A program made the translations under genes and the position numbers. Positions 3,001 through 64,000 of a DNA stretch of 64,000 nt are shown piece by piece (within the stretch, counting starts at the first letter, position 1; each line of letters begins with the position of its first letter). The stretch spans positions 689,601 to 753,600 of the forward strand of contig CM119267.1 in the NCBI GenBank assembly GCA_051294375.1, given 5' to 3'. The notes below the pieces were generated by a model that was not told the DNA's origin, did not search any database, and saw only the letters and a program-made list of their open reading frames with translations. Origin of the DNA: Paraspadella gotoi. Taxonomy: Eukaryota > Animalia > Chaetognatha.

Positions 3001-4410
3001 GAAATCCAGCTTCTCTACCTTTCCCCGTTGCTCTTTTGCTCTTTATTATGACATCGAAAATGCCACCGTTCTAGCGATCGATACGACATCTTTAGGCTCT
3101 TCTTTTGTTTCTACTTAAGTACAGAATTCCGAAGGCAGTGTACAGCTGATTCTGATTGGTGCCCGTGATTTCGATAGATTTCGATTAAGATTTTAATCGA
3201 ATTCTGGCCACGTGGCATCTTCAGATCTCAAAGTTGTCACTGGGTTTTTAAGTTCTTTTCAGAGCATTAGAAACTCTTATTCAGATATCTCGGAATCTTA
3301 TTTTTTGTGATCGCTGGTTTGGTGGACTTTTCTATGAAGAGAAGCATCTCTTTTTATATTTATTGGCTTCAGAAACAAGTAAGAAAGACACTTTAAATTT
3401 ATATATATTTGCTGAGTTTGTGATAAATGTTTTGTTATTCTTTGCCCAGGACTCTAACTACAATCAAGCAACTACAACTACTTTACAGATTTACATCTAC
3501 ATTCGTCAAGTCCTGGGCTTCGTAGATCGTCGTCCTTTCGGCCTTAGCCGACGTCATCTACCGAGACTTTGTCGTCATCATCTCCAGGCGTTCTGACCGG
3601 CGCCATCGTTCTTCTGCGCCATTTTATACCCGATTTCATCTGTCTTCAATGCGCAGAATTAGTCCAGTCAGTTAGAATGTCAAAGACGCCACTTCTCCGA
3701 ACTTAGTTCAATACAGATAACTTGAAACTAAAAACTTGTCTCTTCTCTGTCGTCAGAGGTAGATTCCGACTCTTCCTCGCTCCTTCAAATTCGATCTTTC
3801 AACTTTTTTAAATATTTAGATCAAAGATTATTCCACATGTTGAATAAAGTAGAAATAAGAAAGTTGTTTTGGTAAAAGGGGTATAGAAAATTGGTTATCA
3901 GTTGATTGTACATACATTTGCGCTATATTCAAAACTCAAAGTATAAATTTTTATTGAAAAGCAGAATATTCATTATTTTGTTTGAGCCTTAGGTTTTAAA
4001 AAAGGATAAAAAAATATTAACTTGAAAACAAATGAAAGAAAAAACGTGTTTCTTTTTCGCTCAGGTCAACCCGCAGTTCAGAGTGAAAAAAAAAGGAGAT
4101 AGAGAGAGAGAAAACATTTTCCTCCATAAAAACAGGTTTCAAAACTGATCGCGTAGAAAAGGACCTGGACCAATCACCGTCGTTGAGTATCTTTTCAACC
4201 AATCAGGAGTCGCGATCCTGAAACCGGGAGGGTCGACAAGTCGGCGAGAATGTCGAGAGTGTCTGGAGATTTTTAATCTGACTTCAATCAATCAAGTCAT
4301 TGTGATTCGTGAAGAGTAAGAATGAGGTTCAACATCACAGAATTAGGGAGACATGTGGAATTGTGGATAAGGCGCTAAGTGGGCTGAAGATGACTATCCG
4401 TAACTTTTAT

Positions 4411-4671: not shown

Positions 4672-5425
4672 AAAACTCAGAAACAGTCACGTTTTTTTAA
4701 AAATAATTGACGAAAGGAATTCAATCCCTTTTTACAGAATCTTCTGTTTGAAAAATCAAACGGGATTTCTTTCTCACCTCTGAGGCAACCAAGGATCTTT
4801 TAGAAAGCAAATAGAAAGCTAATACTATTAATAGAATTAAATCACATTAAAGGCTGAAAACTGAAAACTCAGAAACAGTCACGTTTTTTTAAACATAATT
4901 GACGAAAGAATTCAATCCCTTTTTACAGAATCTTCTGTTTGAAAAATCAAACGGGATTTCTTTCTCACCTCTGAGGCAACCAAGGATCTTTTAGAAAGCA
5001 AATAGAAAGCTAATACTATTAATAGAATTAAATCACATTAATGGCTGAAAACTGAAAACTCAGAAACAGTCACGTTTTTTTAAACATAATTGACGAAAGG
5101 AATTCAATCCCTTTTTACAGAATCTTCTGTTTGAAAAATCAAACGGGTTTTCTTTCTCACCTCTGAGGCAACCAAGGATCTTTTAGAAAGCAAATAGAAA
5201 GCTAATACTATTAATAGAATTAAATCACATTAAAGGCTGAAAACTGAAAACTCAGAAACAGTCACGTTTTTTAAACATAATTGACGAAAGGAATTCAATC
5301 CCTTTTTACAGAATCTTCTGTTTGAAAAATCAAACGGGATTTCTTTCTCACCTCTGAGGCAACCAAGGATCTTTTAGAAAGCAAATAGAAAGCTAATACT
5401 ATTCAAAGAATTAAATCACATTAAA
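4672..5425. repeat. Tandem repeat, ~192-bp unit x ~4
   Basis: The unit starting aaaactcagaaacagtcacgtttttt recurs near 4672, 4865, 5056 and 5248 with near-identical sequence. Confidence 0.95.
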
Positions 5426-5859
5426 TGCAAGACAAAAATCCCTCACTTGATCGATTCTTATTCGATTTGAAAGCGACTGCCTTATAAGGAGATGGCGGCG
5501 ACACATTCGTCAATTAGAAAAAAGACAGAGCTATTTATCTGATGAGTTTGTTATGAGGTTTGACAAGTGACTAATTGCTACCAGCATCAAAAGTGTAGTC
5601 AACGTCGCCACCGACGAAGAGAAAGTCACGCCTACTGGTAATGGGTATTAGATAATACAAAAAATAAATATAACTATAAATATTTACCAAAAAAATCAAA
5701 TATTTTATAATTATAAAATATATTCTAAAATAGTAGAACAAGTTTTTCATTTTAATTTGTATCGATTTCTATTTGTGAACTTTCATGGAAATGACTCATG
5801 AGGGCCCAAAAAAAATGTATTTAGTATCACTTTCTTCTTTTTCTTTTTTCCTTAACTAT

Positions 5860-6250
5860 CGTTGACGTTTAGTCAGATAACGAGGGTAAATAATAAGTGG
5901 CAAAGTATTTGGTTGAGAATAGTTTATTAATGACGGACAGTGATTAAGGTGATGACATAGGTAACGATGACACGATGACAAAGGTTAAGACAAAGGTGAT
6001 GACAATATTAAACGGTTCAATAATTATTTGAAGAAGAGTTCTTTCTTGAGTTTGGGTGTAAAGGTGAATGCCTAGAGTTCTCTTCGCAATTTTGACCATC
6101 AATCCCTCCGTCGGTTCCTCTGTCGATCATTGGTAAATCTAAGGTTGAAGTAAGGTCTGTGATTCGTCAGCATTCTGATGATTCGTGAAGGAGACGAGCA
6201 ATCACATCACTAGGGCAACCAAGTCCGTTTATAGGTCCATTCCGTTGATG
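5860..6250 (-). repeat. 3' LTR (391 bp)
   Basis: Matches 8620-8859 plus 9528-9678. On the minus strand it is preceded by the PPT and TGA. Confidence 0.85.
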
Positions 6251-7039
6251 TCACCCCCTCTCCAGTCGACGAGGGCGGTGGGTCTTAGAACACCAGACGA
6301 GTCTTTGCTGGTGTCCATCTACACATCTCCAGGTGTGTGGGTGCGAGTAGTCTAACAGTTCTTTGTCCTGAAATGGCATGGGTCTGACAGGATAATGATG
6401 GTATATGTTTTCTGGTCTTGAGAAGAGCAGCAGTGGTCTTTGATGAGGTGGCTCAATTTTCAGTTCAATTAGTTTGGGAATATTCCTTTGGCTTGTCAAA
6501 TGTTGATTTGCTTGTAAGTGGTGCTCAAATGGGTTTTTCCAATCACGGGAAGGCGGTTTACACTGTAGGTTAAATGAGTATGGTCTGGGGCGTGGCTTGA
6601 AATGCATTGGTTGGATAAAAAGCTTTTTATCAAATTGGGCAAAATCTGAAGCAAGGGAATTAATCTTTTCTTCTAAAGCTTTTATTTGGGCATTTTGAGT
6701 GGGGCAAACTTGATGAGTCCCTGAATTATGTTGAGAGGGGTAAAATTTAGGTTTATTATTGTTGATACAGCTCTCTTTACTTTGATTTTTGCTGTTATCT
6801 GAGCTATTTTCTTTTGTTTCTTTGGCCTCATTTTTGTAAGTTGTGATTTTATTGTAAAATTTTGGAATTTCCTGTTCATTGTGATCTCTTTTCTCTTGGG
6901 CATTAGCACTGAAACTTTGGTGAAAAGAAACAAGTGCATCCAATGTATCATTAAGAGCCTTAACCAGCGTTGTGAAGTCTGGAATGTTGGTGCCATTTTC
7001 TACTGTGGGTTCCTCTGTTTGTGATGCTGAATTGGACAT
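6251..7039 (-). CDS. ORF2 of the LTR element (262 aa, coiled-coil and Pro-rich; in frame with ORF1)
   Basis: ORF track. Same reading frame as ORF1, separated by one TAA and 5 codons. Its stop TGA lies between the PPT and the LTR. No recognisable RT, IN or protease motifs. Confidence 0.6.
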   Translation of the reverse strand: MSNSASQTEEPTVENGTNIPDFTTLVKALNDTLDALVSFHQSFSANAQEKRDHNEQEIPKFYNKITTYKNEAKETKENSSDNSKNQSKESCINNNKPKFYPSQHNSGTHQVCPTQNAQIKALEEKINSLASDFAQFDKKLFIQPMHFKPRPRPYSFNLQCKPPSRDWKNPFEHHLQANQHLTSQRNIPKLIELKIEPPHQRPLLLFSRPENIYHHYPVRPMPFQDKELLDYSHPHTWRCVDGHQQRLVWCSKTHRPRRLERG

Positions 7040-7054
7040 TGTGGGTGCTAGTTT

Positions 7055-7966
7055 TTAAGCTTCTGTCTGTGATGCAGAATTAGACTTTATGGGAGTTAAT
7101 CCTTCCGGAAGTTTGTAGTCAGAAGTTTGCGTTTCTGCATCTTTCTTAGTACTGGTAGGTCCTAGAGAGTCAATACCGATATCCTTTACGGAATTTACTG
7201 AAATTTTTATGAGAGAGTCTTTTTTTTCAGGCAGGTTTTTAGTTTCATCTTCTTTTTCTCCATCTTCTTTGCTTTCTTTATTTTTACTTTCTACTTTATC
7301 TGGATTTTTTACTTTTTCTGGATATTTGATCCTACAAGCAGCAAGAAATGCTCTCAGATCCTTCTTCTGACATATTTCTTTTGCCTCTTCTGTTTCCATC
7401 TGTATCCTTTTTTGTTCAGCTTCTTTTTCTTTTCTTTCACTTTCTTTTTCTTTTCTTTCTCTTTCTTTTCTTTCTCTTTCTTTTCTTTCTCTTTCTTTTC
7501 TTTCAATTTCTTCTATTTTGTTGAATTCCTGTTTCTTTTCTTTTAATAAGCGATGGAACTCAGCATTAAAACAACGAGCATCAACAGTTGAGTCAAACTT
7601 GAGGCAGAGCAAAAAATCTTCTTCTTGCCTTTCAAAAATGTTATCTCTTGACATGTAAGTCCATGGCTTAGTAAAGGGTTCAATTGAAATGTCATGAGAT
7701 GCTTTTGGACCTCTAAATGACAAGCGGGCCTGCTTTGTTTTTCTATTTTGAAAAAGCTTGACAATTCCTTTGTAGGGGCCATCAATGGTGCTCATGAATG
7801 AACGTGTACAAGGGGTTGAGTTTTGAAAATATGTGAGAAAAGCCTCTTTTACAATTATTTTATTTTCATCGGCTGATGGTGAGGGGAGAGAGAAGGGTGG
7901 AGGGCGGGAAATGAGCTTTAAGGCGACTTTTTCAAATTGTACTTGAATTCTTTCAGTTGACGCCAT
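7055..7966 (-). CDS. ORF1 of the LTR element (303 aa): divergent RanBP1/Ran-binding (PH-like) domain, charged coiled coil, TQT motifs
   Basis: KGIVKLFQNRKTKQARLSFR...KPWTY...LLCLKFDSTVDARCFNAEFHRLLKE resembles the RanBD pattern GxVKxL..K.T.K.RL.MR...AWVW...LAIRF..xE.A..F...F. ERKER repeats; DAETQT and SASQT motifs. Confidence 0.65.
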   Translation of the reverse strand: MASTERIQVQFEKVALKLISRPPPFSLPSPSADENKIIVKEAFLTYFQNSTPCTRSFMSTIDGPYKGIVKLFQNRKTKQARLSFRGPKASHDISIEPFTKPWTYMSRDNIFERQEEDFLLCLKFDSTVDARCFNAEFHRLLKEKKQEFNKIEEIERKERERKERERKERERKEKESERKEKEAEQKRIQMETEEAKEICQKKDLRAFLAACRIKYPEKVKNPDKVESKNKESKEDGEKEDETKNLPEKKDSLIKISVNSVKDIGIDSLGPTSTKKDAETQTSDYKLPEGLTPIKSNSASQTEA

Positions 7967-8553
7967 TTTTTTGTTGTTGTTTCTATTTCTTACTCACGTG
8001 ATGATTCAATCTGGCGAGAGAGGAGAGAGAGAGAGAGAGAGAGGATCGATGATCTTTTTCGATTTTCTCTCGGATTCGGTCAACTGGGCAGCAAGGATTT
8101 TCGAGAGGAGAGGGAGAACGATCGATTCGATTTTCTTTGTTTGGGAGGGATGCTGGGTCACGTGACGACGTAGTCCAAAGCACGAGGAAGGGAGAGCGTG
8201 GGAGATATAGAATTGGTTTTTTTTGTTTTGTTTTGTTTTTTTTTTGGCTTGAATTTGAACGGAGGGGGAACAGTTTGAAATTTAGGGAAATAGTACGTTT
8301 TTTGGGGTGGGGGCCGAGAGGGATTTTTAGTTTGATTTCGTTTTTGTTTTTTTTTTTTTGCACTCAGGCTACGTTAGTACGCACTCCTGATTTCGCAAAA
8401 AGTTATTTCAAATATCAAAAGGGCTATTGAAGGAGAAAACTTTGTATTAATTTCTTTCTTTTTTTTTTTTTGTTTATATTTTTTTTTGTTTATAAGTTTA
8501 TTTGGGATTGAAGGAATTTTCTGGAACGGGAGTTAACGTAATTTTTCGAATAG

Positions 8554-8619
8554 GGTAGCGTAGTTTTTCAATTAAGTCTCTTCGGAGGAGTGGGGAGTCG
8601 AATCACGACGATGCCACCA
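8554..8619 (-). promoter_or_regulatory. Extended primer-binding site complementary to tRNA-Leu(AAG/TAG)
   Basis: Plus strand ggtagcgtag...attaagtctcttcggaggagtggggagtcgaatcacgacgatgccacca resembles tRNA-Leu (GGTAGCGTGG...ATTAAG...GTCTCTTCGGAGGCGTGGGTTCGAATCCCACCGCTGCCA) plus CCA. It abuts the LTR at 8620. Confidence 0.8.
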
Positions 8620-9678
8620 CGTTGACGTTTAGTCAAATAACGAGGGTAAATAATAAGTGGCAAAGTATTTGGTTGAGAATAGTTTATTAATGACGGACAA
8701 TGATTAGGGTGATGACATAGGTAACGATGACACGATGACAAAGGTTAAGACAAAGGTGATGACAATATTAAACGGTTCAATAATTATTTGAAGAAGAGTT
8801 CTTTCTTGAGTTTGGGTGTAGAGGTGAATGCCTTGAGTTCTCTTAGCAATTTTGACTATCCTCTATCTGGGATGGGGGTAATCTGGGTCTAACTAACGAA
8901 AAGAAAGAAAGTTGTTGGGGAAAAAGAAAGAAATTGAAAGTCCAGTTTCGGCGAGGGAAAGAGAGAAAAAATTTCGGCGAAGTAGGTAGAGCGGAAAAAA
9001 ATTGGCGGGAGTGGAGTTCAGAAAGAAAGCGGTCAGATAAAGGTTAAATAAGGATGTCAGAGAGCGGGTCAGAGAGGAAAGAGGGAAATGGGTGAGGTTT
9101 GTTATTGTGATGGTCAGAGAGAAAGAGGGAAATAGGTGAGATCTGTTTTGGTTAAGTCCCGGTTAGCAGCTCAGGGGTGAGAGGAATTGTTTGGGGATTT
9201 CTTTAGTGGTTAAGTAAGAGTAACACATTGGGCGCCACTCTATCTGGGATGGGGGTAATCTGGGTCTAACTAACGAAGGCGAAAAGAAGAAGGCAAAAAT
9301 GTAGGAAAACGTGTATCTACTACTAAAAAAAGGCAAAAAAGGTGTACAAAAAAATGGAGGGAAAATCGGAAGGAGCTGAGAGGAGAAAGTAAGAGAGAGA
9401 AGGTAAAAACGAGAAGTGAAAAACTGGGTGAGCCTCGAGCCCTGGGTGCTAGGAGGAGGAAGAGGAGGGTGAATGCGTGGCTGACGAGGCACGAGGCTCG
9501 CGCTCGGGCTGGTTTGGTCGTTGCCATCAATCCCTCCGTCGGTTCCTCTGTCGGTCATTTGTCAATCTAAGGTTGAAGTAAGGTCTGTGATTCGTCAGCA
9601 TTCTGATGATTCGTGAAGGAGACGAGCAATCACATCACTAGGGCAACCAAGTCCGTTTATAGGTCCATTCCGTTGATG
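8620..9678 (-). repeat. 5' LTR, interrupted by a nested 664-bp insertion
   Basis: Colinear with 5860-6250 except for extra sequence at 8860-9523 flanked by ctat/ccat. Confidence 0.85.
8860..9523 (-). mobile_element. Nested small LTR-type element with tRNA-Lys PBS
   Basis: 40-bp direct repeat at 8861-8900 and 9238-9277. Minus strand TGGCGCCCAATGTG (9237-9224) matches the tRNA-Lys(CTT) PBS TGGCGCCCAACGTG. Flanks are ctat (8856-8859) and ccat (9524-9527); the empty site in the other LTR is ccat. Confidence 0.65.
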
Positions 9679-10053
9679 CTATATTTAAGAGAAGATACAA
9701 ATTTTAATTATTTCACTTTCGACGCGGTAATCGTATTTTGACAACCGCGATGTTCTTTTCCGTTTCTCAGATTTTCCGCTTTGTTTTCCGAGTTTGTCGC
9801 AGGAGGCGCTTCGGCCCGAGTCAAGTTCAAACTTGGACTTTCGGACAAAATGCTATCGTCGAAGGTGATACGCCTGTGAGACGTCTCTCTTTTGGAATGA
9901 AAGAAAAAAGTACTTTATTTAATTAAATATTACGTAATTTTATTACAATGATTCGCGAGATGAAACTTCATCGACCAAAGAACGCAGACCAAAATCCCGG
10001 TGGCGCCAGCGATCCCGGTCGCGACGAAGCTGAGCACGTCTCGAAAAAAGAGC

Positions 10054-12727
10054 CTGGGATCTCCGGGTGAAGGAGGCTATGAAGGTTGGAGATGTTGAAT
10101 CGCGACGATCTCGGCGCCGCCAGTGAATTTGTCCACTTGCTCCCTCTTCCCCACCCCAACCCACTCCCCCCCTCTATCTCTCTAATGCGCACCTCACCTT
10201 TTCACGGACTCCCAAAACATTAAAATAAAAACTAAAAATTACCTCTTCCGACTTTAATCCCTCTCGGCGACTCTCCGGCCAAATCTCCGTCTCCCGGTCA
10301 ACGTCATCATTTTTAGTCGGATCTGCTTATATAAATATATAAATATATAAATATCAGCAGATCCCGACTCTATAATTCACTTTGTCGGTCCGTCGGTCCG
10401 CCCCACCAATCATTCACTTAGATCATCTCAGAACCTCAAATTATGATAATTTATGCAAAAAAAATGGTGTCCGTCCGTCTGCCCGTCCGTCTGTCCGTTT
10501 GTCCATCCCCCCTTAGCATTATACTCCAATTACTCGTCATTGGATAGATGGATTGGAATGAAATTTTGTGTGTGGGTAGGAAAGTGTATGATTGAGTGGC
10601 CAGTCGACCAAATTATGCCAGTTGACCAAATTATGCCAGTTGATAAAATTATGCCAGTTGAGCAGATTATGCCTGTTGAGCAAATTATGTCAGTTTACCA
10701 AATTATGTCAGTTTACCAAATTATGTCACTTGACCAATTTAAGCAAGTTATCCAAATTATGCCAGTTGTCCAAATTACGCCAGTTAACAAAATTATGTCA
10801 ATTGAGCAAATTATGTCAGTTGACCAAATCATGTCAATTAACCAAATTATGCCAGTCTACCAAATTATACCAGTTGACGAAATTATGCCAGTTGACAAAA
10901 TTACGTCAATTGAGCAAATTATGCCAGTTGACTAATTATGCCAGTTGTGAAGGTGTCTCTCCTTGACGCCCACAGAGTCGCACGTTCTAGATGTTGCCCG
11001 TTCCTTGAAGAGTGACAAAGGATCTTTTCTACATGAATACTTTAATCTTTGCTGAATATTGAGTCAAATTCTGATGAATATTAAGACCCGAAAAGGTTTC
11101 CAAATATTTATTAATCAAGTATAAAAAAGTCCCGTAAAACTGTAATAAGAATGGGTGAAACGTTTTAATTGAGTCCAAAGTAAAACTAAAAACGTAGTTT
11201 CTCTCTTTTTAAATTTTGAGGTGACTAAACAAAGATATCTGACCGACAGATCAAATACGACTCAGATAGAACCAAAAATGTAAATGAGAGAGAGAGAAAA
11301 AGAGGTTAAAATGTAGGATGCGAGGCATAATATTTTACTCCAGTTGACAAATTATGCCAGTTGACCAAATTATGCCAGTTGATCAAANNNNNNNNNNNNN
11401 NNNNNNNNNNNNGAGTCTGGGATCTCCGGGTGAAGGAGGCTATGAAGTTGGAGATGTTGAATCGCGACGATCTCGGCGCCGCCAGTGAATTTGTCCACTT
11501 GCTCCCTCTTCCCCACCCAACCCACTCCCCCCTCTATCTCTCTAATGCGCACCTCACCTTTTCACGGACTCCCAAAACATTAAAATAAAAACTAAAAATT
11601 ACCTCTTCCGACTTTAATCCCTCTCGGCGACTCTCCGGCCAAATCTCCGTCTCCCGGTCAACGTCATCATTTTTAGTCGGATCTGCTTATATAAATATAT
11701 AAATATATAAATATCAGCAGATCCCGACTCTATAATTCACTTTGTCGGTCCGTCGGTCCGCCCACCAATCATTCACTTAGATCATCTCAGAACCTCAAAT
11801 TATGATAATTTATGCAAAAAAAATGGTGTCCGTCCGTCTGCCCGTCCGTCTGTCCGTTTGTCCATCCCCCTTAGCATTATACTCCAATTACTCGTCATTG
11901 GATAGATGGATTGGAATGAAATTTTGTGTGTGGTAGGAAAGTGTATGATTGAGTGGCCAGTCGACCAAATTATGCCAGTTGACCAAATTATGCCAGTTGA
12001 TAAAATTATGCCAGTTGAGCAGATTATGCCAGTTGAGCAAATTATGTCAGTTTACCAAATTATGTCAGTTTTACCAATTATGTCACTTGACCAATTTTAA
12101 GCAAGTTATCCAAATTATGCCAGTTGTCCAAATTACGCCAGTTAACAAAATTATGTCAATTGAGCAAATTATGTCAGTTGACAAATCATGTCAATTAACC
12201 AAATTATGCCAGTCTACCAAATTATACCAGTTGACGAAATATGCCAGTTGACAAAATTACGTCAATTGAGCAAATTATGCCATTGACTAATTATGCCAGT
12301 TGTGAAGGTGTCTCTCCTTGACGCCCACAGAGTCGCACGTTCTAGATGTTGCCCGTTCCTTGAAGAGTGACAAAGGATCTTTTCACATGAATACTTTAAT
12401 CTTTGCTGAATATTGAGTCAAATTCTGATGATATTAAGACCCGAAAAGTTTCCAAATATTTATTAATCAAGTATATAAAAAAGTCCCGTAAAACTGTAAT
12501 AAGAATGGGTGAAACGTTTTAATTGAGTCCAAAGTAAAACTAAAAACGTAGTTTCTCTCTTTTTAAATTTTGAGGTGACTAAACAAAGATATCTTGACCG
12601 ACAGATCAAATACGACTCAGATAGAACCAAAAATGTAAATGAGAGAGAGAGAAAAAGAGGTTAAAATGTAGGAGGCGAGGCATAATATTTCACACCAGTT
12701 GACAAATTATGCCAGTTGACCAAATTA
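10054..12727. repeat. ~1.35-kb tandem segmental duplication across an N gap (probable assembly or haplotype redundancy)
   Basis: 10054-11387 and 11417-12727 are colinear, differ mostly by 1-2 nt indels and are separated by Ns. Confidence 0.8.
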
Positions 12728-13157
12728 TACCACTTGACCAAATTACGTCAATTGACCAAATTATTCCAGTCTATCAAATTTTGCAAGTTAATCAAATTAC
12801 GCCAGTTGAAAAAATTATGTCAGCTGACCAAATTATGCCAGTTGACCAAATTATGCCAGTTGACCAAATAATGCAAGTTGATTAAATTATGCCAGTTGAC
12901 CAAATAATGCAAAATTACCAATTATGCAAAATTACCAAAATTATGCAAGTAGGTATTGGCGAGGCCACTGGTAATGATTGATAGATCATTTAATTTATAG
13001 ATTTATTAAGAAGTCTGTTATGATTTGTTATGTTACGATGTATTGTGATTTGATAAGATCACAAATTAAAAGTCAGAAAAAAATACCGTGATTTATCATC
13101 AGTTTATTACCGCTTAATTATCGTAGGCAGATCCGACATTGTTTGCTCAAACTTGTT
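10310..13157 (+). mobile_element. Helentron-associated non-autonomous element (HINE/DINE-1-like) with internal 18-bp minisatellite
   Basis: 5' ttttAGTCGGATCTGC with nearby inverted copy GCAGATCCCGAC; (GTCC/GTCT)n microsatellite; gttgaccaaattatgcca arrays; 3' GCAGATCCGAC followed by hairpin gtttg-ctc-aaac and a T-run. This is the DINE-1/HINE architecture. Confidence 0.7.
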
Positions 13158-13815
13158 TACCTGAAAGTAACTTAAAGACTAAAGTTTTGAACCCTCGCCC
13201 CTTTTGAATTTAACTTAATAGTAGATCTCTACCTATGGAAAAGTCGTACATCCATCCACTGCCGCCGGGGAGAAGTAATGTGCAAGGATAAACGACATTT
13301 GATTTTATACAGCAACTAAGAAACCACTAATTGTCAGTTATTTTAAAATTATTGTAGTTTCATCAGCGGTAAGCAGCTGATCATATAATTAATTAATTCA
13401 TTAATGTAGTTTGTTTATTGTTTATTGTTTGTTTATTGTTCACTGAAGGTATGTTGTTCATAATTGACTATTAGAATTTTCGTACGTAACTTTCACTACG
13501 CTTTATTATTCATCTCTTCATTCTTTTCTGTATTATTAATACTATTAATCTTATTATTCAATATTTATTCTTGTCTGATTCAGAGTCTGAATTCGATAAG
13601 AAAATTTAACATCGCGGTCCCTGATTTGTCAGATTTTCGTGACGAGAGAGAGAGCCAATCAAAACTCATTTGATCTTGGATGAGACATCGCCAACTGGTT
13701 TAATGTTGTTTAATCCTTTCCAAGATTTACGCCTCGTTAAAACTTTTATCTACAGACAGAAGAATAATTACTTAGACGGAAATCGTTTTAAGAATTAAAT
13801 TTTGGCAATTCTCTC

Positions 13816-13862
<47 letters not shown>

Positions 13863-13921
13863 GCACATAATTAATCATTTTGCTCTTTTTATTTTAAAGA
13901 AAATCATTGATTGACCCAAAA

Positions 13922-16900
13922 ATGTCTGTTATCAAACGACCACTCCAGCGACTGGTTCACTTCTCTTTAACTCCCCTCTCTTCACTCATGGCCTGCTCCT
14001 CTTCTACTGTACGTCGCTCCACCACGGCCGCGACCCTTAACTCCGCTCCACCAGAGCCCGAACCGGCTTATGGATTCGACGTTTCAGAATTAGCGACAGC
14101 AAAGCCTTTGTCCTCTATGCCGGGGCCGCGGACCGTGCCCTTTATGGGCTCTGCACTCGCCTTTCGCCCCATCGGAGAACTAGATCCTTTTGAGGCAATC
14201 TCAAGGTTCTCTGATGTTAACTTACTGAGTAGCCTTACCTAAAATTTTAAAATACAGATAACGTCTATGCAATATAATGAAAATAAATTAGATATTTATT
14301 TAATTTGAAAAAAAATGTATTTGTTTTAAAAAATTTACTGAGTAATAATATATGTAGCTTATTCTTATAGGGCCGTGTTATCATTACAAAATGCCCACTG
14401 GTAACAAAAGCGCCACTGTCGTCAGAAAAGTCGCGGGTACGAATCCCATGATTATTTTTTTGATTTACTACATATATGACACAATGAAAAATGGCGTAGC
14501 GTAACGGTTGCAGGCGTAAAATAAAATTCACTGTTCGATATTATGATATTCGATTGAATTTTGTAAAACGTTATATTTTCATATAATTATGAAAGTTGGA
14601 AAATGACTCGTTTCACTCTCTTTATTTTTTTAGATATTTAAATACAATATTATTTATCAATGTTTGGGATGGGGAGAGTAGTGTTGTCTTCTGGAAATAG
14701 AGGCCGAACATAAATTGGGAATGAAAAATTTGGGGGGGGGATTAAGGTTATATTGTATGATTTTATCATAAGGATAAGACCACATTGTAGAATTTTATGT
14801 TCTGATAGGGATACATACTGGGAAAAGTTGTATAGGGGCACCTATTATATTTCAAATGTAATATTAAAGTATATGTTAAAATATTTTTGAGATTTTAATG
14901 TTTTTTTAAGTTTCCTTTTAGTCCGATCTGCTTATCAGCAGATCCCGACTCTATAATTCATTTGTCGGTCCGTCGGTCTGTAAATGCAAGATATATTAAT
15001 TAATCAAAAAATTAATCAGTTAATTAATCAATTAATAAATTAATTAATAAATAATTAATTAATCGGTCAATTAATCAATCAATTAATTATTTAATCAATT
15101 AATTTTTTTAGTTATCTATTAATTAAATATTCAATCAATCAATTTATTTATAAATTAATTAATTTTTTAATCAATTAATCAATCAAACAAGTCAATCATT
15201 ATCGGCATTATTGTCGTCGTCGCCATCATCGTCGTAGTTGCTTTTTTCGTGGTGAGTGACGAAAAGACCTAAAAACAAACATTTCGGATCAAATTAATTA
15301 AATTGTTAAAGAAATTATTATTTTAGTTTATATAGTTTGTATTAATTGATTAAATAATTACCGCTCATGATCGTTGGCAGATCCGACATTGTTTGCTCAA
15401 ACTTGTTTTTTCATAATTTATCATAATTCGATATTCTGACATGATATATGTGAATGCCCGACAAGATTGAGGGGGCGGACCGACGGACCTACAAAGTGAA
15501 TTATAGAGTCGGGATCTGCTTATAAGCAGATCCGACTAAAAAAACAACAAAGTTAATTAAGAATCTAATGTCTACAAATAATTTGATCACATTTTAAATT
15601 ATTGGTTTTCAGAGGAACTTTAATGGAAAAAAGATACGGAAAAATAATTCGAACTCATTTTCCTCTTCTGGGAATGAAAAATGTGGTGACATTACTTGAC
15701 CCAGCAGATTGTGAAATTGTCTACAGAAACGAAGGTGGTTCATTTTTAGAATTTATTGTTAACTGTAATAGATTGATAATGTTTTTTAATAATCAATGAT
15801 TGAAAATTAATGATAGATAACGCCTTTATGACTAAATTGCTAATGATGATTTTCCAGGCAAATACCCGCGCCGGCCGCCTTCTCCTGTTCTTCAAATCTA
15901 CAGAGATGAGAACAAGCAAAGTCGCGGTCTTTTTCTTTCTAATGATTCCGAGTGGTGGCGTTTTCGTCAGCCTCTAAACAAGACAATGATGAGAGCTAAT
16001 GCCGCTTATCCCTATTTGGATATTCAGTCTCCGGTTGGAGACGAGTTGGTCCAGACAATTGGAATGGAAGTGGACAAGAGAAATGGGAAATATCCTGAAG
16101 TCATGGAGGTAAAAATTATAGTTAAATTATTATTAATTGAAAAAAATGATTTTAAGGCCTAATAAGTAGAACTGCATTATGAGAACATATTTGTATCTTT
16201 ATTTTTAAGAAATAATCCGTTCGAAAGTACTAATTGATTAATCTTTTTTTTTTAATTATAATTTTTACTTATAATTCAATAAAGAAAAATCGTAGAAAGT
16301 TGGGAGAGGTCTCTAACTAAAGCTTATGGTTTGTAGATAATGAAAGACATATAGACATTAAAATTGTAAGCATATTCACTAAAACTACTAAATCATTTTT
16401 ATACCAAATTTTTAAAAACTTTAATTAGCATTTAAAAAAAATTCTGCTCATGGGACTATTGAGTAGATTTTAAGATTTTATAGGTTTCAGAGATGCCACT
16501 TTTTTGTTTCTTTCATATCCTTTCTGCCTTACCGTAAATATGGACTCCAGTGCTTTTGTGTCAAAATGCAAAAATACTGATACTAATACTGATACTAATA
16601 CTAATACTGATACTGATACACTGAAAGACGATTTATGAAATTGGTACAACCAATATAAAAAAAATATATAAAATAAACAATGTATATACAGTGAGTGAAT
16701 ATAACAATGGAAATAATAAGAGTTAAAAATCAACATCATAACAAGTTTGAGTAAACAATGTCGGATCTGCCTACGATAATTAAGCGGTAATAAGCTAATC
16801 CGATGATAAATCACGATAATTCTTTCTAACTTTCAATTTGTGATCTTAACAGATCATAACTAATCATAACATAACTGACTTCTTTATAAATCCATGAAAA

Positions 16901-19900
16901 AAAACTACGTATAATTCAATTGATCTATCAACCATTACCAGTAGCTGCGCCAATACCAACTTGCATAATTTGGTAATTTTGCATAATTTGGTCAACTTGC
17001 ATAATTTATTCAATTTCCTTTATTTGGTCAACAGGCATAATTTGGTCATCTGAGATAATATGGTTAACAGGCATAATTTGGTCAACTGGCACAATTTGGT
17101 AAACTTGCAGAATTAGGTCACTTGAATAATCAATCATTCAGAGAGCGATAGAGAGAGAGAAACTTTTAAAAATTCAAAAAATGTGTCTTTGGGTTTTCTA
17201 ATTTAAACTCGTTTCCTCTTGGATGATTCTATCAAAACTAAAGCACACACTTTCCTACCCACATACAAAATTTAATTTCAATTTATCTATCCAATTTTTA
17301 ATCAATTTAATAATTATTAGTAAAAATAGTTCAAGTAAATATGAATTTTGTTTTTTCCATTCAAACTCATTTCCACTTGCACGATTCCATTGAAATTTTA
17401 TAATTGGTTGAATGGCATAATTTGGTCAATTGACGTAATTTGGTCAATGGCATAATTTGGTCAACTGGCATAATTTGGAGAACTTGCTTAAATTGTTCAA
17501 ATGACATAATTTGTTCAACTGATGTAATTTGGTCATCTGACATAATTTGCTCAACCGGCATAATTTGCTCAACCGCCATAATTTGGTTAACCAGCCTAAT
17601 TTGGTCAACTGGCATAATTTTATCAACTAGCATAATTTGGTCAACTTGCAGAATTTGGTCACTTGAATAACTTGGTCAACTGGCATAATTTAGTCAACTT
17701 GCAACCAATCCATCAATCAATCAATCAGAGAGAGAAGAGAGAATTTTTTTAAAAATTCAAATAAATGTGGGTAGGGTATTGCACAAAAATTTAAAAATAC
17801 AGATTTTTTTCATTTCGATGGTTTTAAACCTTATATTAGGCCTAAGTTAATATCGTTAATTCAAAGTTTGACTTTTAAATATTTGATTTACGCCAACTAT
17901 TTACGTCAATTTGGAGTAACGTTTCTGCCTCCTTACTACTGTCAAGGATATTCAACCAAAATTTGAAAAACGCTTTTTTCTAATTAAGAATACATTGTAG
18001 TATTGGATTCAGATTTTGATTTCTTTTTTTTTTACGTGTTGTTGGCGCTGGTGGCGTAAAAACAACGCCAACTTTTTTTCATTTTCCAAATAAAGCTACT
18101 AAGTTAAGATGCTTTGGCGTAGAATGGCGTAAATTGACGTAAAACTGCGCCACTTTATCCCCTCATCTCTTTCCTTTCCTCCTTTTCTTTTCTCTTTTAT
18201 TTTTATACCAATCTCCGATCTAAAGTCGATTACTTTTCGGTTTTGATTCTTTTAAGGGGACCAAGTGAACAGGGGGTAGGTAAAGCTGAAACATAACGTT
18301 TGACCCTTTAACTTAAGCTGGTTCTGATCATATAAATTTTTTCTTCTATAATCATTTGGGAAAGTAGTTAAAAAATTCGATAAAATCAGCGAGCTTAATT
18401 TTCTTTAAAAAATCGTAAGAAGAAAATCTTTTTCAAGTTTAAAATTTTTTTTTTCCAAAAAAGGGTAAGATCTAATTTTAAAAAGATTTTCAGCTTTTAT
18501 CATAAAAATTTATAAGAAAAAAAAACTAGGAATGAATCAAAATTTAAGGTATCGACTGATTTTTATTTAAACTTTCTTTTCAAATGATTCTGTTAATTGG
18601 ATGAAAATAAAACTCTTTGAAGTAATATAAATATATAAAGAAGAGAAAGATTCTGTACTTTGCTAAATTTTTAATTGTTATAATTAGGAATCAATATAGT
18701 TTAATTATACATTTAAGGGATGAATATGAATATTAATTAATAATTATTACAGTTTTGTTTCTGTAAGAATAGAATTTAGGTTTGATTTGTCTGCTTTTAA
18801 GTAAAATAAAAATAAAAAAATATTAGTCTTGTAAAGCCTTTGTTCAATGAGGCTTAAACCTAAAATTATAGCTTTGTACAGTAAAAAATAAAAAATTGGA
18901 ATTTAGTAAAAAATACTTTCTAATGCAAAATAAAATAATGGATTATATAAATATTTAGGTAGGGTTCAACTAAATTTTTTTTTCATAATTATTAAATTTT
19001 TGTTTCTGCTAGAATAAGAGATAGGAATTTTTTTGCCACTTTCCCATGCAAAGAAAAATTAATGACTATCACCATTCAAATTCCCTTTGATGATAGACCC
19101 TTAAGCTTATGATATCATTTTTATCACTGGGTCCCCTTAAAATCAAAGAAAAACGAAACCGAAAATAAAACTCAAATCATAGATAAAAAGAAACAAAGAT
19201 ATACCACGTAAAAGTCAGTGGACCAATTTTATTAAAAGTATCAGAAATTGTGGACAACAATGGTCCTTGAGGTTTATATTTGAACTTAGTTAAAAAAAAG
19301 ACTATGAATAAAGATATTACCCATTATAATAATTATAGGTATCATGTATATTTAGCAAAGGAGGAATTGTTGTAGGCAGAAAAAGGCATGATAAATCTTA
19401 AGATCATAATAAATATATTATATCAGTTTCATACATATTGATGATTCATAGGCCTTAATATACAATAGGAAAGATGATATAAAATTACTATCGCCAGAAC
19501 TGCTGCTGGCGCATTTTTGCGCATCATTTTTGGGAATCAATAATGATCAATATGTTGAGAGAAAACCCATTTGCATCTCCTGTAACCAGAGGTTTTGCGA
19601 GGAAAGCCTAGTTTTTGCGCAACAATAAAAATAAATATTGCTTTCTGTACTATTCCAATATTTTCTTATTTGAAAGATTCTTTTTCGGTTTTTAGTTAGA
19701 CTTACCCTTACAGTACAGTAACTTTTTTCTTTACTCGATAAAACTGAGGGAGTTGGATATCTCTCAAACTTGGAGTTGGAATCAGCTCAGCTATGAGTAA
19801 TAGATGCAGGAAGGTGAGCTTGTGTCCCCATCGGAGGGATTTTTAAAAATTCAAAAAAATTGCGCTCAGCACCCTAAAAATTTTTTTTACAATATTTGCT

Positions 19901-38964: not shown

Positions 38965-39632
38965 CATTTAAAAAGTAAAAACGACTTTAACTAAACCTTT
39001 CCACCCTGCGCCTGCCCTTCCAGGATCTCTGCTGCAAAATGGGCGTGGAGTTGGATGTTTTTCTCAGTTTCGTCTCGAAGCGTTGGTGGTGTCACGTGGA
39101 CGACGATACGTACGTCAACGTTCCTGCGATGCTCGATCTCCTGCGAGGCTACGATCACCGACAAGATTGGTATCTCGGAAAACCTTATTACAAAAACTGG
39201 TCCATCCAAGTCTACGACAGATATTCCCCTCGCTACGTAAACCCCGGAAAACAAGAGGCAGAAACAATTCGAGTCTTATTCGGAACGGGTGGCGCCGGAA
39301 TCTGCATCTCACGACCTCTCGCCGAGAAAATGATGGGGATTGCCGGACAAGGAAGGTTCGGTCTCGTTTGCGAAGTCTTGCGTCACGCGGATGATGTAAT
39401 TGTAGGCTACATCGCGGACCGATTACTTCTGACGCCGTTAACCATCGTCAAAAAACTCCACACGAACGAGATGTCGATGACGCATGTAGAGGCGGCGCAC
39501 ATGCGCGAACAGGCGACACTGGGATACCCAAACAGGACTATGAAGCAACTACATTGTTCCATCTTTCCAGAAACGACAGTTTGCGCAAAAAGCTTGATTG
39601 GGGTAACTTTTACTTTCGCCGACCGGGGTTAG
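38234..39632 (+). CDS. fng: Fringe-family beta-1,3-N-acetylglucosaminyltransferase (GT31), 3 exons
   Basis: Exons 38234-38321, 38615-38913 and 39024-39632. Type II TM anchor; DILFTVKTSAKFHSTRVKSLLETW; LCCKMGVE; WWCHVDDDTYVN (DxD); YLGKP; FGTGGAGICISRPLAEKM; DDVIVGYI; HCSIFP..C. Confidence 0.9.
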
Positions 39633-56242: not shown

Positions 56243-56737
56243 TTAATAGAGCTTAAGATGACCAGTGACCCGGTCAATGATGACCGCTGGACCGGGTCCA
56301 ACGGCCAATACGGTCATTGACCCCGCGGCGATTTGAGTTCTTCCCGCATCAAATATGAGACTCGTGACGAGATGCTTGGCCTTCGCCTCCGCCTCCAGCG
56401 CTTCCATCTGCTCTTCCGTCTCCGCCTTGAGGGTGATCTTGGCCTGCCCTTCTCTCTCCCACTTTTTGAGAAGCTCGGGCTGCATTCGGGCTGCCCGCTT
56501 GTACGCCCCCACGGCTGCGTGGGCGCATTGAGCCGCCGCCTTTCCTTTCCCCATTTTGAGATCTTGTCGAACGACGAGAACCATTTTCGCTTCGCCGCCG
56601 GAAAAGTCGGCGGCGGAGTCGGCGGCGGAGTCAGCGGCGACGGCGGCGGCGGAGCGAGTCAAAGATCGAAGGTAAAAACCGATGGCGACGCCGGCCAAAC
56701 CGGAAAGGATCGACATCGCAAGGTTGTTCACCTCCAT
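56243..56737 (-). CDS. PTRH2: Peptidyl-tRNA hydrolase 2 (Pth2/Bit1), single exon
   Basis: N-terminal TM; [24 protein letters not shown]; [21 protein letters not shown]; [14 protein letters not shown] ~20 nt after the stop. Confidence 0.97.
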
Positions 56738-59524: not shown

Positions 59525-60771
59525 CTAACCTAACGACGGAGCGACGTTCCCTTCCGATCTTCGTCGTCTTAGCAACGTCGGCCTCAACGGATGCGACGAC
59601 CTCCTTGAGCAACTCCGCCTTCAACGACCCTTCAGCGATTTTGGCCAACAACTCTTGCATCATCTGCAACGCGGAGCCGTCCCCACCCGCCCGCGCCAGC
59701 AGCCCCTTCAGCCGCAGCAGGAACTCAGTCTCCGCCGGCGTCAAAGTCTCCGTCCAACGGGCGGCGCCGCGGCCGGAAACGGTGAGGAAGCGTCGCGTTT
59801 CGTTGGCGACGGCGACGCGGGTGACGTCTCCGGGCGCCACGCCGAAGACGCCGCACAAGGTCGTCCAGAAGGCGTGGGTGTCGGCGTTCAATTCTTGATC
59901 AAGGATGAGGGCGCGAGACTCGTCGTCGAAAAGAGAATGGAATGGAAGGCGGGAGGAAGCGAAGGAAGAGGAGGAGCAAGAATCGGTCGTCAGAGCAAGC
60001 TCGTCGGGGGAGGGCTCACCGATTCGAACGTATTCCTGACGAATGTGGATCGGGAGGATGACATAAGAATGATGTCATGATATAAGTTGAGATAATGTGA
60101 TTTTATACAATGACTACAGTTTACAGTAACTACAGTTTATAGTAACATTATAGCACTTATCAATAGTGAAGCCAAGGACTGACAGCTTTGTTTAAAAGCT
60201 TGAAGTGTCAAGTTAGGAAATCTTGCAAAGGAATAGCCTGTCCCAAGTCAAAAAGCAAGAAAGTATGGCAAATTGGCAACAGCCGGGTTGCCTGTGATGC
60301 CCATTGGGATGGGGCATCTCAGTTGGCTTTGGGGGCTTCCGACCCTCAGTGACGCATCCAGTCACTGGCGCGGTTACCCTAGGACGGTCTCGCTTTGTCA
60401 ACGCAGAGGAAAGTCGTTAGGACTGGATGAAACACTACGCCTGGGATGGATTTGGCTGATGGATGGTGGACGTGAGGCGGTGTGAATATACCGCCACAAT
60501 AGCTTATTTTAAATTATGAAAAGATTATTTTCAAATTGTTTGTATCAATTTTATGAGATGAGTAGATGAGAGTGGATTCCATTCAACTTTCACCACTCAC
60601 AAGCCCTCAGCTGCCCTCACCTTCAAAAGATCCAAAACGAGGCTCCTCTTCTCCAACTTGCGTCTCTCCTTCTCGAGTCCCGACGCCAGCGCCGCTTCTG
60701 ATGCCGCGTGGAGAAGAAAGAAGAGAAGAGAGTAATCATAGGGGGAGACACGAGTGAGTTGATCCTGAGGA

Positions 60772-60824
<53 letters not shown>

Positions 60825-62407
60825 TAAAAAGAATTGAGAGGAAGAGAGAATATCGATTCGAAGGAAAGAATGACCAGAATAGAAAGAAACGGGTCCGCCC
60901 CCCCCACCTGTGCCCAATTAAAGACGCTCCTCTGATCAGTGACGAAGGACAGGGCCTCTTCCGCGCGGCCGGCGAAACGCGAGAACCCTTTATTGTTGTT
61001 GTTGTTGTTCTCATTTTTGTTGTTGTTGTTAGCTTCGAGATAAGATTCGACGATTTTTCCAAGAAATTTCAAGATATAAAAATCCGGTTTTTCTTGAGGC
61101 GAAAAATCTGAGCAAAAATCGAGAATGAGTTTGACGTCGACGCCGTCGTCGTTGTTATCGATGAGGTCTTCGAGCAGACGAATCTTCTTGTAGTTTTCTT
61201 TGTTGACGCAATCCTTGAAGTCTTTGACGCCGATCTTGGACAAACGATATCCCCAACGGGCGTCGACTCTCAGCCTCTCCGCTCTCTTCACTTTGACTGG
61301 GTTGGACTCCAAGCGGCCGAGGTCTCCGCAGATTTCAGCGATTTCTCCGAGACGCTTGAAGCTTTGCGACTTGACGGCGGATTGGGCCAACTCTACTAAG
61401 AGCTTCTCCGCGTCCTCGGCCGACATCTTGGTGAGGACGGAGACTACGTCGAGACGGTCCACGCAGCCGGACATGACGAGGCGCTTGACCGAGTCACGAC
61501 AGACGCGGGCGAAGTAGGAGCGGAGGATGTGGCGGCGCTTGAGCGAGCACGAGGATTCTGTTTCGACGGACGAAGAGTTTGATTCGATCAAAGACTCGAG
61601 ATCGGCGAGAAGGAAAAGCGCTAAATTGGAAAGGGATGAGGAGCAGAGACAGTCGAGGATCTCCTTTGCGGCGTCAAAGAGACCTTCGTGGGTGGCATCG
61701 AGATCAGAGCCGGAAAAGACGCCGAGTTGCGACGCCCTGTCGAGGTAATGAAGGAGCGCCGGCGCCAATTCTTGTTCTAATTCGAATCCAACCGATTTGC
61801 CCAAATCTTTGGCGATTTCGGGGAAGAGAATCGTCGCCATAGATTCTGCGTCGTCGTCGTCGTTTTCGTCATCGTCGTCGAGACCCATTCGATCGAAACA
61901 ATCCAATACGAGGTGCAAGCGACGCTGAATCTCTTGAAAAGCAACGAGCCATCGACCCTCGGCGCGGAGAAGAACGGCCGATGCCATCCGACGCAGTCCG
62001 GACAATCGGAGGCGAATCTCGAATGGGACAGTGGACGACGACGACGAAGACGACAAGGCGCGGATGAACCCAACGACGAAATCTTGGAGCGATCGAAAGA
62101 ATTTGTCCGCGCGAATCAAAGATGATGAAGAATCGACTAAGGATCGAGCCAATCTGTCGACAAGACTCATCGTCGTCGTCCAATCAGGAGACGATGAGAG
62201 ACTCCTCTCGGCCAATGAGAGAAGAGCTCGCGTCAATGAGAGGCCGAGACCGAAACTCAACTCGATCGCTCGTTCAACATCAAGAGTCGGGAAGAGGAAG
62301 AGAAAAAGTTCATCGGAAGAAACAGAACATTGAGAGAGACGGACATCGATGCCCGTCCGTAGGGCAACCTGAGGAATCGTGGGGAGGGAACACAAAATAT
62401 GAATCTT

Positions 62408-62493
<86 letters not shown>

Positions 62494-63775
62494 AAACCTT
62501 TAGCCTGGCCATCTCCGTCACAAGGCCGGCGTAATATTCCCTTTCCCAAGGATCGTCGTCTGCCTCTTTCAAAAACTCGGCGGCGCGCGATGCCGCCTCC
62601 AGATGACGCCGCTTCCAGTCGCGGGCGGCGTCGTTGGACGCGCCGGCGTCGAGGATGGAGATGAAGAGGAGGCGTCTAGCGATGGAGACGGCGAAGGCGG
62701 CGCCGCGAGATCGGCGAAGAAAGAAGAGCAGGGACCCGATTCTGATTAAAGTTTGATTAGTAAGAATTCAACAATCCTTTACAGAGGGCTTCATATGATA
62801 ATAATGTAATCATTGTGTGAAATCCTATCTTTTCGTCGCGTTATTGTAATTAGAAAAAAGTATGAATTGTTCTCAGCAATAATTTTTTTTTTAACTACAT
62901 GATATTGTACTAATTCAACAATCCTTTAATATCAAATCGATGGCAATTATCACAACAACAACAACAACAACAACCTCTTTTCCAACCTGTCGTATTCTTC
63001 CTCGAGGATCCAAAGGTTCATCTTCCAAACGAAGACTCGATCAGCTCCGAAATCTCCGCCCACGACTTCAACGAAGAAGAGGGCGTCGTCGAGGGCCTCG
63101 TCGACGCCGCTGGAAAGGATTCGCTTGACGGCTTTTTCCGGATTCTTCGTCGCCGCCTCCAACAGCCCGTCGAGGCCGTAGGGACGCAGCCGGGCGCGGA
63201 GCTTCGTCACGGAGATCATCCGCTTGAGGGACTCAACGAGTGGATCGTCGTCCAAGAGGAGACATTCATCCACCGTCGCGGACAACGAGGAATTCCAAGG
63301 AAGAGACACGATTTGAAGGCCGTGGATCAGGGCAGAGATTTTTAAGGCTTAAGGAGAGAAAACTTCTTTTATCTTATTTGCATATTGCAGTATATAAAGA
63401 GTTTTGAAATAATTTCACTTTGTAATTGCATTTTCTAATTTTAATGTTTGGGGAAATCATAGCCTTTTAAAATCACCCTTCAATAGGAACACCACGACAT
63501 AACTGTCTCACCTTTATTCTGAATGAAACCCAAAACGACGCAGACTGTTTCCTCGACGGTTTCGTCCATAGACCCAACGCACCCTTCAGCCGACAACTCC
63601 TTCAAGAACTCTGTTAGGACGGCGTCGCGACTAAGGCTAGCGTCGGCGAGGAACTTGGAGAGGACGCCCCGCTGCAGCTCGGAGGAGATGTAGCGGGCGC
63701 AGCCGACGCGGCGGAGCATCGAGGAGGCGATGGAGAGGTTGCTGAGGAGAATGTTCATAGACGGACTTAGTCGGC
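56972..63775 (-). CDS. KNTC1: Kinetochore-associated protein 1 / Rough deal (RZZ complex), 3' part; 5' exons lie outside the window
   Basis: Exons ~63775-63512, 63347-62987, 62741-62498, 62368-60908, 60764-60621, 60035-59530, 59211-58962, 58884-58618, 58112-57963, 57882-57706, 57504-57354 and 57186-56972 join in phase. Motifs LPWN...LRPYG, VDARWGYRLSKIG, SPYDY, RLPFH, NLRRAIFLL and AVRLARDLCLEYEI match Rod/KNTC1. Confidence 0.88.
58289..58643 (-). repeat. 32-bp tandem repeat x ~11 made of a KNTC1 exon end plus 5' splice site
   Basis: Minus-strand unit GTAGAAGACGAGGAGATGCTGGAG|gtgagatg. The first copy is the coding end (VEDEEMLE) of exon 58884-58618. Confidence 0.92.
60274..60480. repeat. Longer copy of the structured dispersed repeat, in a KNTC1 intron
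   Basis: Shares 60274-60377 with 43129-43230 and continues with GC-rich sequence containing gactggatg, complementary to catccagtc. Confidence 0.7.
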
Positions 63776-63835
63776 CTCGTGATGTCATTTACAAATTATC
63801 AGACAGCCAACGAATCACAGACCTTATAACAACCT

Positions 63836-64000
63836 CAGTTCTTAGGAGGCGTGGGTTCGAATCTTACCGCTGCTACCACATTTTAGTAGACAGGGATTTC
63901 TCGGCAAAACCAAAGTGAAAATAGACAGAGAAGGACGGTGTCAATTTTTTGACAGTTATATATATATATATATACAGTTCAAACGGATCAAAGACACGGG
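63836..64000 (-). mobile_element. Second LTR-end/tRNA-Leu 3'-half chimera (same family as 25364-25738), truncated by the window edge
   Basis: cagttcttaggaggcgtgggttcgaatcttaccgctgctacca followed by cattttagta...gacggtgtcaattttt...atacagttcaaacggatc, homologous to 25441-25590. Confidence 0.65.

Follow-up and report, generated by a model that had tools for sequence, protein, structure and literature searches.

We analysed a long terminal repeat (LTR) element in a 64,000-nucleotide (nt) stretch of the Paraspadella gotoi genome (assembly GCA_051294375.1, contig CM119267.1, positions 689,601-753,600; in the following termed the window, whose own coordinates are used throughout). It occupies positions 9678-5860 of the minus strand, is about 3.8 kb long and contains a single open reading frame (ORF). 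Our analysis indicates that it belongs to a real and young family which has unusual ends and encodes an orphan protein probably derived from a Ran-binding domain (RanBD). The reading we tentatively prefer is that the RNA of this family, which lacks a pol gene, depends on a Gypsy-type helper for copying and insertion, and that its ORF encodes an accessory adaptor whose N-terminal head once came from a host RanBD.

An LTR pair, a target site duplication (TSD), a primer site and a polypurine tract are all present and neither reverse transcriptase (RT) nor integrase is seen. The element thus qualifies as a non-autonomous LTR retrotransposon, its ends excepted. The 3' LTR (5860-6250, 391 bp) starts with CATC and ends with CAACG in element sense, and the 5' LTR (8620-9678) is split by an insert of 668 bp. 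Alignment of the two reveals 9 mismatches in 391 sites (97.7% identity). They are bordered by CTAT at 5856-5859 on the left and at 9679-9682 on the right, a word that accounts for 0.3% of the 4-mers in the window. The polypurine tract GGAGAGGGGG (6263-6254, minus strand) overlaps the last codons of the ORF, whose own stop codon separates it from the LTR. At the other end an extended primer-binding site of 45 nt (8575-8619, minus strand) begins with TGG at 8619, flush with the LTR, and it is this position, together with the LTR homology, that sets the element boundaries. Such a TGG-starting primer site is shared with two other places in the window, and the one at 25440 is identical in 37 of 45 alignment columns. 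We take the site to correspond, in antisense, to the 3' half of tRNA-Leu; neither ARAGORN nor Rfam reports a tRNA there. Directly behind it, the 10-nt stretch 8563-8554 is complementary to what is presumably the 5' end of the same tRNA, an extra match that suggests multipart tRNA pairing. The interval between primer site and ORF (7967-8574, minus strand) is an A-rich leader of 608 nt without ATG. An earlier sequence-only reading of this DNA had described LTRs that are about 97-98% identical, the CTAT duplication, the primer site and the polypurine tract, and all of these hold. Split repeats of the DIRS/Ngaro type are ruled out by the layout of LTR pair, primer site, polypurine tract and TSD. 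A search of the LTR for a twister ribozyme in Rfam gave one chance-level match only, and a pattern search of the LTR found neither a box-B pattern nor a tRNA-like promoter.

The ORF (7966-6251, minus strand) comprises 571 codons, ends at the LTR edge and is interrupted by one internal stop at 7057-7055; it is the only such frame, exactly as previously reported together with its TAA. Base-shuffled versions contain 37 stops on average, none of 2000 shuffles had one stop or fewer, and the five other frames across the region contain 24-54 stops each. The following parts, all on the minus strand, can be distinguished. A probable PH-like, RanBD-like domain, for which all tests remain below significance, covers residues ~33-150 (7517-7870). 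It is followed by an E/K/R-rich repeat with a 15-bp unit, probably a charged helix (7367-7516), and by the low-copy middle of the ORF (7090-7420), within which lies the candidate LC8 motif KDAETQTS (residues 275-282, 7121-7144). Two copies of SNSASQTE (residues 295-302 and 311-318, 7013-7084) surround the stop in a region common to other family members. Finally, the C-terminal half (6254-7054) comprises two probable helical or coiled stretches and a tail (residues 453-571) that is basic, with a net charge of +10, and rich in Pro, His and Gln; for this half we found no family match, no protein relative and no usable Atlas match. A donor-like GTGAGT occurs at 7997, and inspection by eye also showed a run of pyrimidines that closes with CAG at 7873, directly ahead of the domain. 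The features at 7997-7872 are possibly what remains of the edge of a captured intron, or just codons for Pro and Ser. A splicing acceptor-like site at 8011 was rejected as weak, since 9 of 82 pyrimidine runs end in the same way and an upstream donor was not found.

Is the element one of a family? Parts of the ORF are present in 9 of the 11 listed sequencing runs, which come from one organism and three studies and one of which is possibly the source of the window. Five runs were compared. The contigs carrying the domain have depths of 3757-4024 (run X1), 413, 177 (run X3), 193 and 52 (run X9), and the low-copy contigs of each run, given in the same order, have depths of 102-197, 15-22, 18-38, 10-31 and 4-18. 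The domain contigs are therefore about 3 to 39 times deeper in five out of five runs, and in four of these the domain forms a single unbranched contig. Contig depth does not equal copy number and contigs drop rare variants, and with this in mind the pattern fits several near-identical young copies. The sequence-only reading had proposed a recently mobile, non-autonomous retroelement and a search for further copies; its proposal is borne out as a multi-copy, pol-less LTR element, the depths in all five runs being those of a family and not of a single copy.

The copy in the window is itself broken, by the internal stop and the insertion. Because nearly all contig depth reads otherwise at the internal stop, this stop belongs to the lineage of the window copy. 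Other family members diverge from the window sequence at 7085-7089. One contig of X1 joins position 5843 to 9704; it is not a clean empty site, because 28 other letters separate the two and its flank differs at 12 of 160 nt. Junction contigs extend no further than 26-27 letters into the LTR, which is below the threshold of 31 letters. None of the runs listed as containing parts of the ORF is recorded as RNA. Run X9, which we guess to be RNA, covers the flanks like the DNA runs do and has no bearing on expression.

An unusual feature of the family, which had escaped the sequence-only reading, is its ends. The LTRs read CA...CG instead of the usual TG...CA. In run X3, seven contigs pass from the LTR into differing flanks exactly at the CG end, and the majority line of these flanks ends in TAT, like the TSD. 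A canonical TGAC/GTCA pair 3 nt further inward was rejected, as it would break the TSD and disagrees with the loose ends in X3. Moreover, a second LTR family at 25738-25441 likewise starts with TATAG|CATC and ends with TG, and a third LTR end at 63879 also ends with TG. All three LTR ends are followed by primer sites of 42-45 nt, and a target preference for ATAG is likely. The word TATAGCATC is found only twice in the window, at the LTR starts of the studied element and of the unit at 25738.

These ends matter independently of the protein, since integrases are thought to require a 3' CA (10.1101/137141). Two plant surveys (10.1101/137141, PMC9804982) state that the first LTR base is always T. 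Our literature search, which covered neither Repbase nor most subscription papers, yielded among the results listed no animal precedent for CA...TG or CA...YG ends or for a 45-nt tRNA-Leu primer site, and descriptions of such ends in Gypsy groups of insects or other invertebrates may already exist elsewhere. Element finders based on TG...CA would overlook families whose ends read CA...YG.

The absence of gag and pol from the window copy, as claimed before for the gag CCHC, protease, RT and integrase, is confirmed by motif and Pfam searches. The patterns CCHC, D[ST]G and YxDD do not occur in any of the six frames. Retroelement Pfam families match neither the two ORF pieces nor any of 28 further frames, which were scanned from a list of 50, and no capsid or Gag family in Pfam matches the ORF. 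Animal non-autonomous elements that have 4-bp TSDs and are primed by tRNA 3' ends have been assigned to Gypsy helpers (PMC10886601), and from the same two features we infer a helper of the Gypsy type here.

What the family looks like beyond the window copy is relevant for a different reading, which is possible though rather unlikely. It holds that the ORF family is a chimeric Gag, in which a RanBD-like head and a coil precede a capsid core and a basic tail for RNA binding, and that the window copy has lost or exchanged the core. The ORF is indeed the first one after the primer site, some Gypsy Gags have no CCHC knuckle, and the middle of the window's own ORF is low-copy. In addition, a 2146-nt contig of X9 contains 1310 nt upstream of 7089 that match nothing in the window at 80%, and its depth of 52.6 is close to that of the domain contig (51.8); in X3 the corresponding depths are 148.5 and 177.1. 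The at least 1.3 kb of relatives that the window does not contain could therefore hide a Gag core. However, the contig is linked to the domain by depth alone and the depths differ in X1 (2409 versus 3757-4024). Furthermore, the lack of a capsid or Gag family match to the window ORF, and of a usable Atlas match for its C-terminal half, argue against a Gag. The accessory-adaptor reading that we prefer has its own difficulties at this point: no helper element was identified, and contigs of the C-terminal type are about four- to five-fold deeper than those of the domain type in X3 and X9 (in X9 ~250 versus 52), which means that many relatives may lack the head.

We then turn to the head itself. 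Among 1.84 billion representatives no protein relative of the domain was detected at E≤0.001, and there is neither an exact protein record nor a relative in viral contigs or metagenome contigs; NCBIfam returned chance matches only. Below the level of significance the signals are more specific. A PDB search at E≤10 gave nine matches, seven of which are constructs of yeast Yrb1 (RanBP1), with a best E of 0.075 (range to 0.14), and Yrb1 is the only PH-like sequence matched in the PDB. The best of these alignments has 29 identities over 83 query residues, covers the C-terminal two thirds of the domain and includes the basic loop, A-x-H, KP, W-x-Y and the final helix. The top Pfam match is a PH family (E 0.036). 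In the Atlas, the best match scores 0.88 with 172 shared features, and all ten best matches that have a family share a family or clan. In Foldseek, 9 of 47 rows are RanBD chains, as read from titles and chains, with E values of about 1-2, and none is titled EVH1. The Yrb1 signal in the PDB and the RanBD signal in Foldseek are not independent, because the same sequence underlies both.

A number of observations detract from this picture. No single test of the head is significant, the seven Yrb1 matches all represent one protein, and an Atlas score below 0.9 is a lead only. Both single-sequence structure models are poor (pLDDT 39.5 and 45.5). With such models no significant fold match (E≤0.001 or Z≥5) was obtained in Foldseek PDB, BFVD or VIA-align, a result compatible with the PH-like fold, and VIA-align gave helical matches only, with Z under 4. 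Pfam Ran_BP1 (PF00638) is not among the matches at E≤10, and the head is not assignable as a member of this family. The sequence-only reading, which saw a RanBP1/RanBD pattern in the N-terminal ~160 amino acids and looked to Pfam and to structure models for support, is thus upheld in part. A PH-like domain is probable, RanBD comes up most often among the named matches and its chains occur repeatedly in Foldseek, but neither Pfam nor the fold searches lend it a significant hit. Taken together, residues ~33-150 probably form a PH-like fold, and for the origin of the head we lean towards a RanBD.

The same data leave some room for a head of a different kind, namely another PH-like module of the EVH1/WH1 or PP4R3 type, or a chance likeness to RanBDs, in which case Ran would be irrelevant. 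The top three Atlas matches are EVH1/WH1 clusters (EVH1_PP4R3 and WH1), a Ran_BP1 cluster being matched as well, and the missing Ran_BP1 match in Pfam points in the same direction. We nevertheless consider this quite unlikely in view of the Yrb1 matches and the recurring RanBD chains, non-independent as these two are.

Whether the head would still bind Ran is a separate question. WKERG, the signature motif of RanBDs, is absent in all six frames, and the Yrb1 alignment begins only at the glycine that follows it; this makes Ran binding doubtful and likewise counts for a head that is not a RanBD. Basic residues of the domain, whose net charge is +5, align with the KNKKT...RRDK region of Yrb1. A basic patch that contacts the acidic DEDDDL tail of Ran is needed for tight binding (10.1101/2021.10.26.465790), and judged by the Yrb1 alignment, residues of this kind seem to be partly kept. 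Canonical Ran-GTP binding by the head is, on the evidence of the sequence, doubtful and probably weakened or lost. This bears on the earlier idea, drawn by analogy with Segregation Distorter, that the protein might be a selfish disturber of the Ran gradient which biases inheritance. All that favours it is the probable RanBD origin and the basic stretch aligned to Yrb1. With the signature motif gone, and with a dispersed multi-copy element that by inference would offer no single linked locus to drive, we regard such a role as very improbable.

Has the ORF been maintained as a protein? We scored 43 differences among copies, 18 from 40 listed out of 289 (the stop site excluded) and all 25 of a second set. 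Of these, 11 are synonymous, which compares to 20-27% expected without selection (p 0.86), and within the domain the count is 2 of 11. Substitutions among copies thus look neutral, and selection on the protein sequence did not show in them. The test is weak and measures decay instead of family-level selection, because most of the differences set a single decaying copy apart from all others. Insertions and deletions (indels), for which 12 of 43 were listed, give another result. Those at high depth are multiples of three in 3 of 3 events inside the ORF versus 0 of 7 outside it (p 0.008, among those listed); if two low-depth 1-nt frameshifts in the ORF are included, 3 of 5 are in frame (p 0.045). 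Moreover, the GC content at third codon positions (GC3) of the ORF is 0.19-0.36, compared to 0.60-0.68 in three host genes, which argues against a recent capture. The neutral-looking substitutions, the frameshifts and the fact that only some of the indels were listed weigh against a maintained protein. Nevertheless, an open frame that persists despite twilight-zone divergence, the GC3 values and the in-frame indels speak for a long life as a protein.

An ORF that is a mere passenger, that is captured host sequence in an LTR shell without benefit to the element, would account for the substitution pattern and for the stop and insertion of the window copy, and captured genes most often end up as pseudogenes (PMC13317346). 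It is harder to reconcile with the absence of any host-like relative in 1.84 billion representatives when 571 codons are open with one stop, and with high-depth indels that preserve the frame; the scored differences, moreover, reflect for the most part one decaying copy. We therefore consider the passenger unlikely, to about the same degree as the chimeric Gag.

The LC8 motifs named by the sequence-only reading, DAETQT and SASQT, are present, and one of them is a strong anchor. In KDAETQTS the K at -5, the D at -4 and the TQT anchor are favoured by published rules (PMC6607443). The pattern D..TQT occurs in 0.6% of shuffles, having been picked after the motif was seen. The two SQT copies (SNSASQTE) are weaker anchors and look like a local duplication. 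Three points lower the weight of the motif: the small A at -3 is disfavoured (PMC6607443), shuffling yields a bare TQT in 9% of cases, and the strong anchor sits in the middle of the ORF, where depth is low-copy. An LC8 anchor by itself is no guarantee of binding, and LC8 is also present where dynein is not involved (PMC6607443). Even LC8 binding would not imply transport by dynein.

If the accessory-adaptor reading is correct, the element might work as follows. Its RNA would be primed by a tRNA, presumably tRNA-Leu, via the 45-nt site, and would be packaged, primed and integrated in trans by the Gypsy-type helper. The helper integrase would accept CA...YG ends and insert at ATAG- or ATAT-like targets. 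The ORF protein would oligomerise via the charged helix and the coiled stretches, LC8 possibly clamping the oligomer; the basic tail would bind RNA or the helper particle, and the remodelled RanBD head would serve for docking, to the advantage of the element's own RNA. Since the ORF ends at the polypurine tract, where third ORFs of LTR elements sit, the family may be the remainder after loss of gag-pol. A more far-reaching version, in which a captured and remodelled RanBD protein attaches to LC8 as well as to Ran-GTP or export complexes and steers RNA or helper particles through the nuclear pore, in an element with CA...YG ends, 45-nt primer sites and an ATAG preference, seems improbable as a whole. 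Were the head still to touch the Ran system, the retroelement would possess a tool drawn from the nuclear-transport machinery itself.

The 668-bp insert in the 5' LTR, which the sequence-only reading did not mention, contains a nested repeat (8861-9523, minus strand) with a 286-bp LTR-like part, a TGGCGCCCAA primer site at 9237, which we take to be of the tRNA-Lys type, and a 40-bp terminal repeat. It starts with CAACG and ends with GATAGAG, its second LTR is only 40 bp long, it is flanked by a 5-bp repeat with one mismatch, and it is repetitive by itself in the sequencing runs. Probably it is a deleted element of another family. The second LTR mentioned above is part of a unit at 25738-25362 (minus strand), whose 298-bp LTR-like sequence starts with TATAG|CATC and ends with ACTAAATTG. 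It is unrelated to the LTR of the studied element, as 133 of 300 shuffles score equally well. It is followed by the primer site of 45 nt, by a short stretch repeating the end of this LTR-like sequence, and by 18 further primer-site letters that overlap ATAG. In the region 63757-63900 a third primer site of this type, at 63878 on the minus strand behind the end ACTAAAATG, adjoins an inverted piece of the studied LTR that is 69% identical. The element is flanked by a 191-bp tandem repeat (4672-5425, 3.9 copies, 98%) and by several arrays of an 18-bp satellite (10599-17699). Host genes in the AT-rich background of the window, the three whose GC3 is given above, are a Fringe-like exon (38991-39629), PTH2 (56246-56737) and KNTC1 (60629-62767). 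The exons of Fringe and KNTC1 agree with an animal host, and PTH2, compared with 31 of at least 120 matches, clusters with aquatic sequences of 82-85% identity, though without marked branch support.

Domain capture by LTR elements is already known (PMC13317346, PMC5408684). In the literature searched, which left most subscription papers and Repbase outside its scope, we found no LTR element with a Ran-binding domain as cargo, and the available part of a review on viral interference with nuclear transport notes no viral RanBD. The RanBDs of RanBP1/Yrb1 and Nup358 (PF00638) resemble the head by the weak match over its C-terminal two thirds. Unlike them, the head, as far as its sequence tells, has no Pfam match and no WKERG and stays below significance in similarity.

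Elements that are similar in kind differ in their details. Non-TGCA LTR elements of plants (10.1101/137141, PMC9804982) share ends other than TG...CA. In these surveys, which are restricted to plants, they are mostly Copia elements with 5-bp TSDs, whereas here a CA start and a CG or TG end go along with a 4-bp TSD. Helenus/TRIMp3 (PMC10886601) is likewise a non-autonomous animal element with a 4-bp TSD, a tRNA 3'-end primer and an inferred Gypsy helper. However, Helenus elements are up to 1263 bp long and non-coding and have tRNA-like boxes inside the LTR, whereas the window element is coding and its tRNA-like stretch is the antisense primer site outside the LTR. Identity with Helenus/TRIMp3 is ruled out by the length of 3.8 kb, the ORF and the lack of a box-B pattern in the LTR. 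Closer in content are the LTR elements of bdelloids (PMC5408684), which carry extra ORFs. Those with an ORF3, and TelKA2n, have 3' ORFs that are neither Gag nor Pol and that are related to cellular proteins, and a non-autonomous derivative of the TelKA2n type has retained its extra ORF, env, and lost most of pol. As cargo they carry env, GDSL esterase, DEDDy exonuclease and transmembrane (TM) or coiled-coil ORFs, with no RanBD or PH-like domain among those described in the part available, and in contrast to them no gag or pol remnant is detectable in the window element. Finally, LTR elements that capture genes, maize Bs1 among them (PMC13317346), are alike in having coding cargo derived from the host; the cargo of Bs1 is still recognisable as host genes, whereas the domain of the window element, which is an animal one, lies in the twilight zone.

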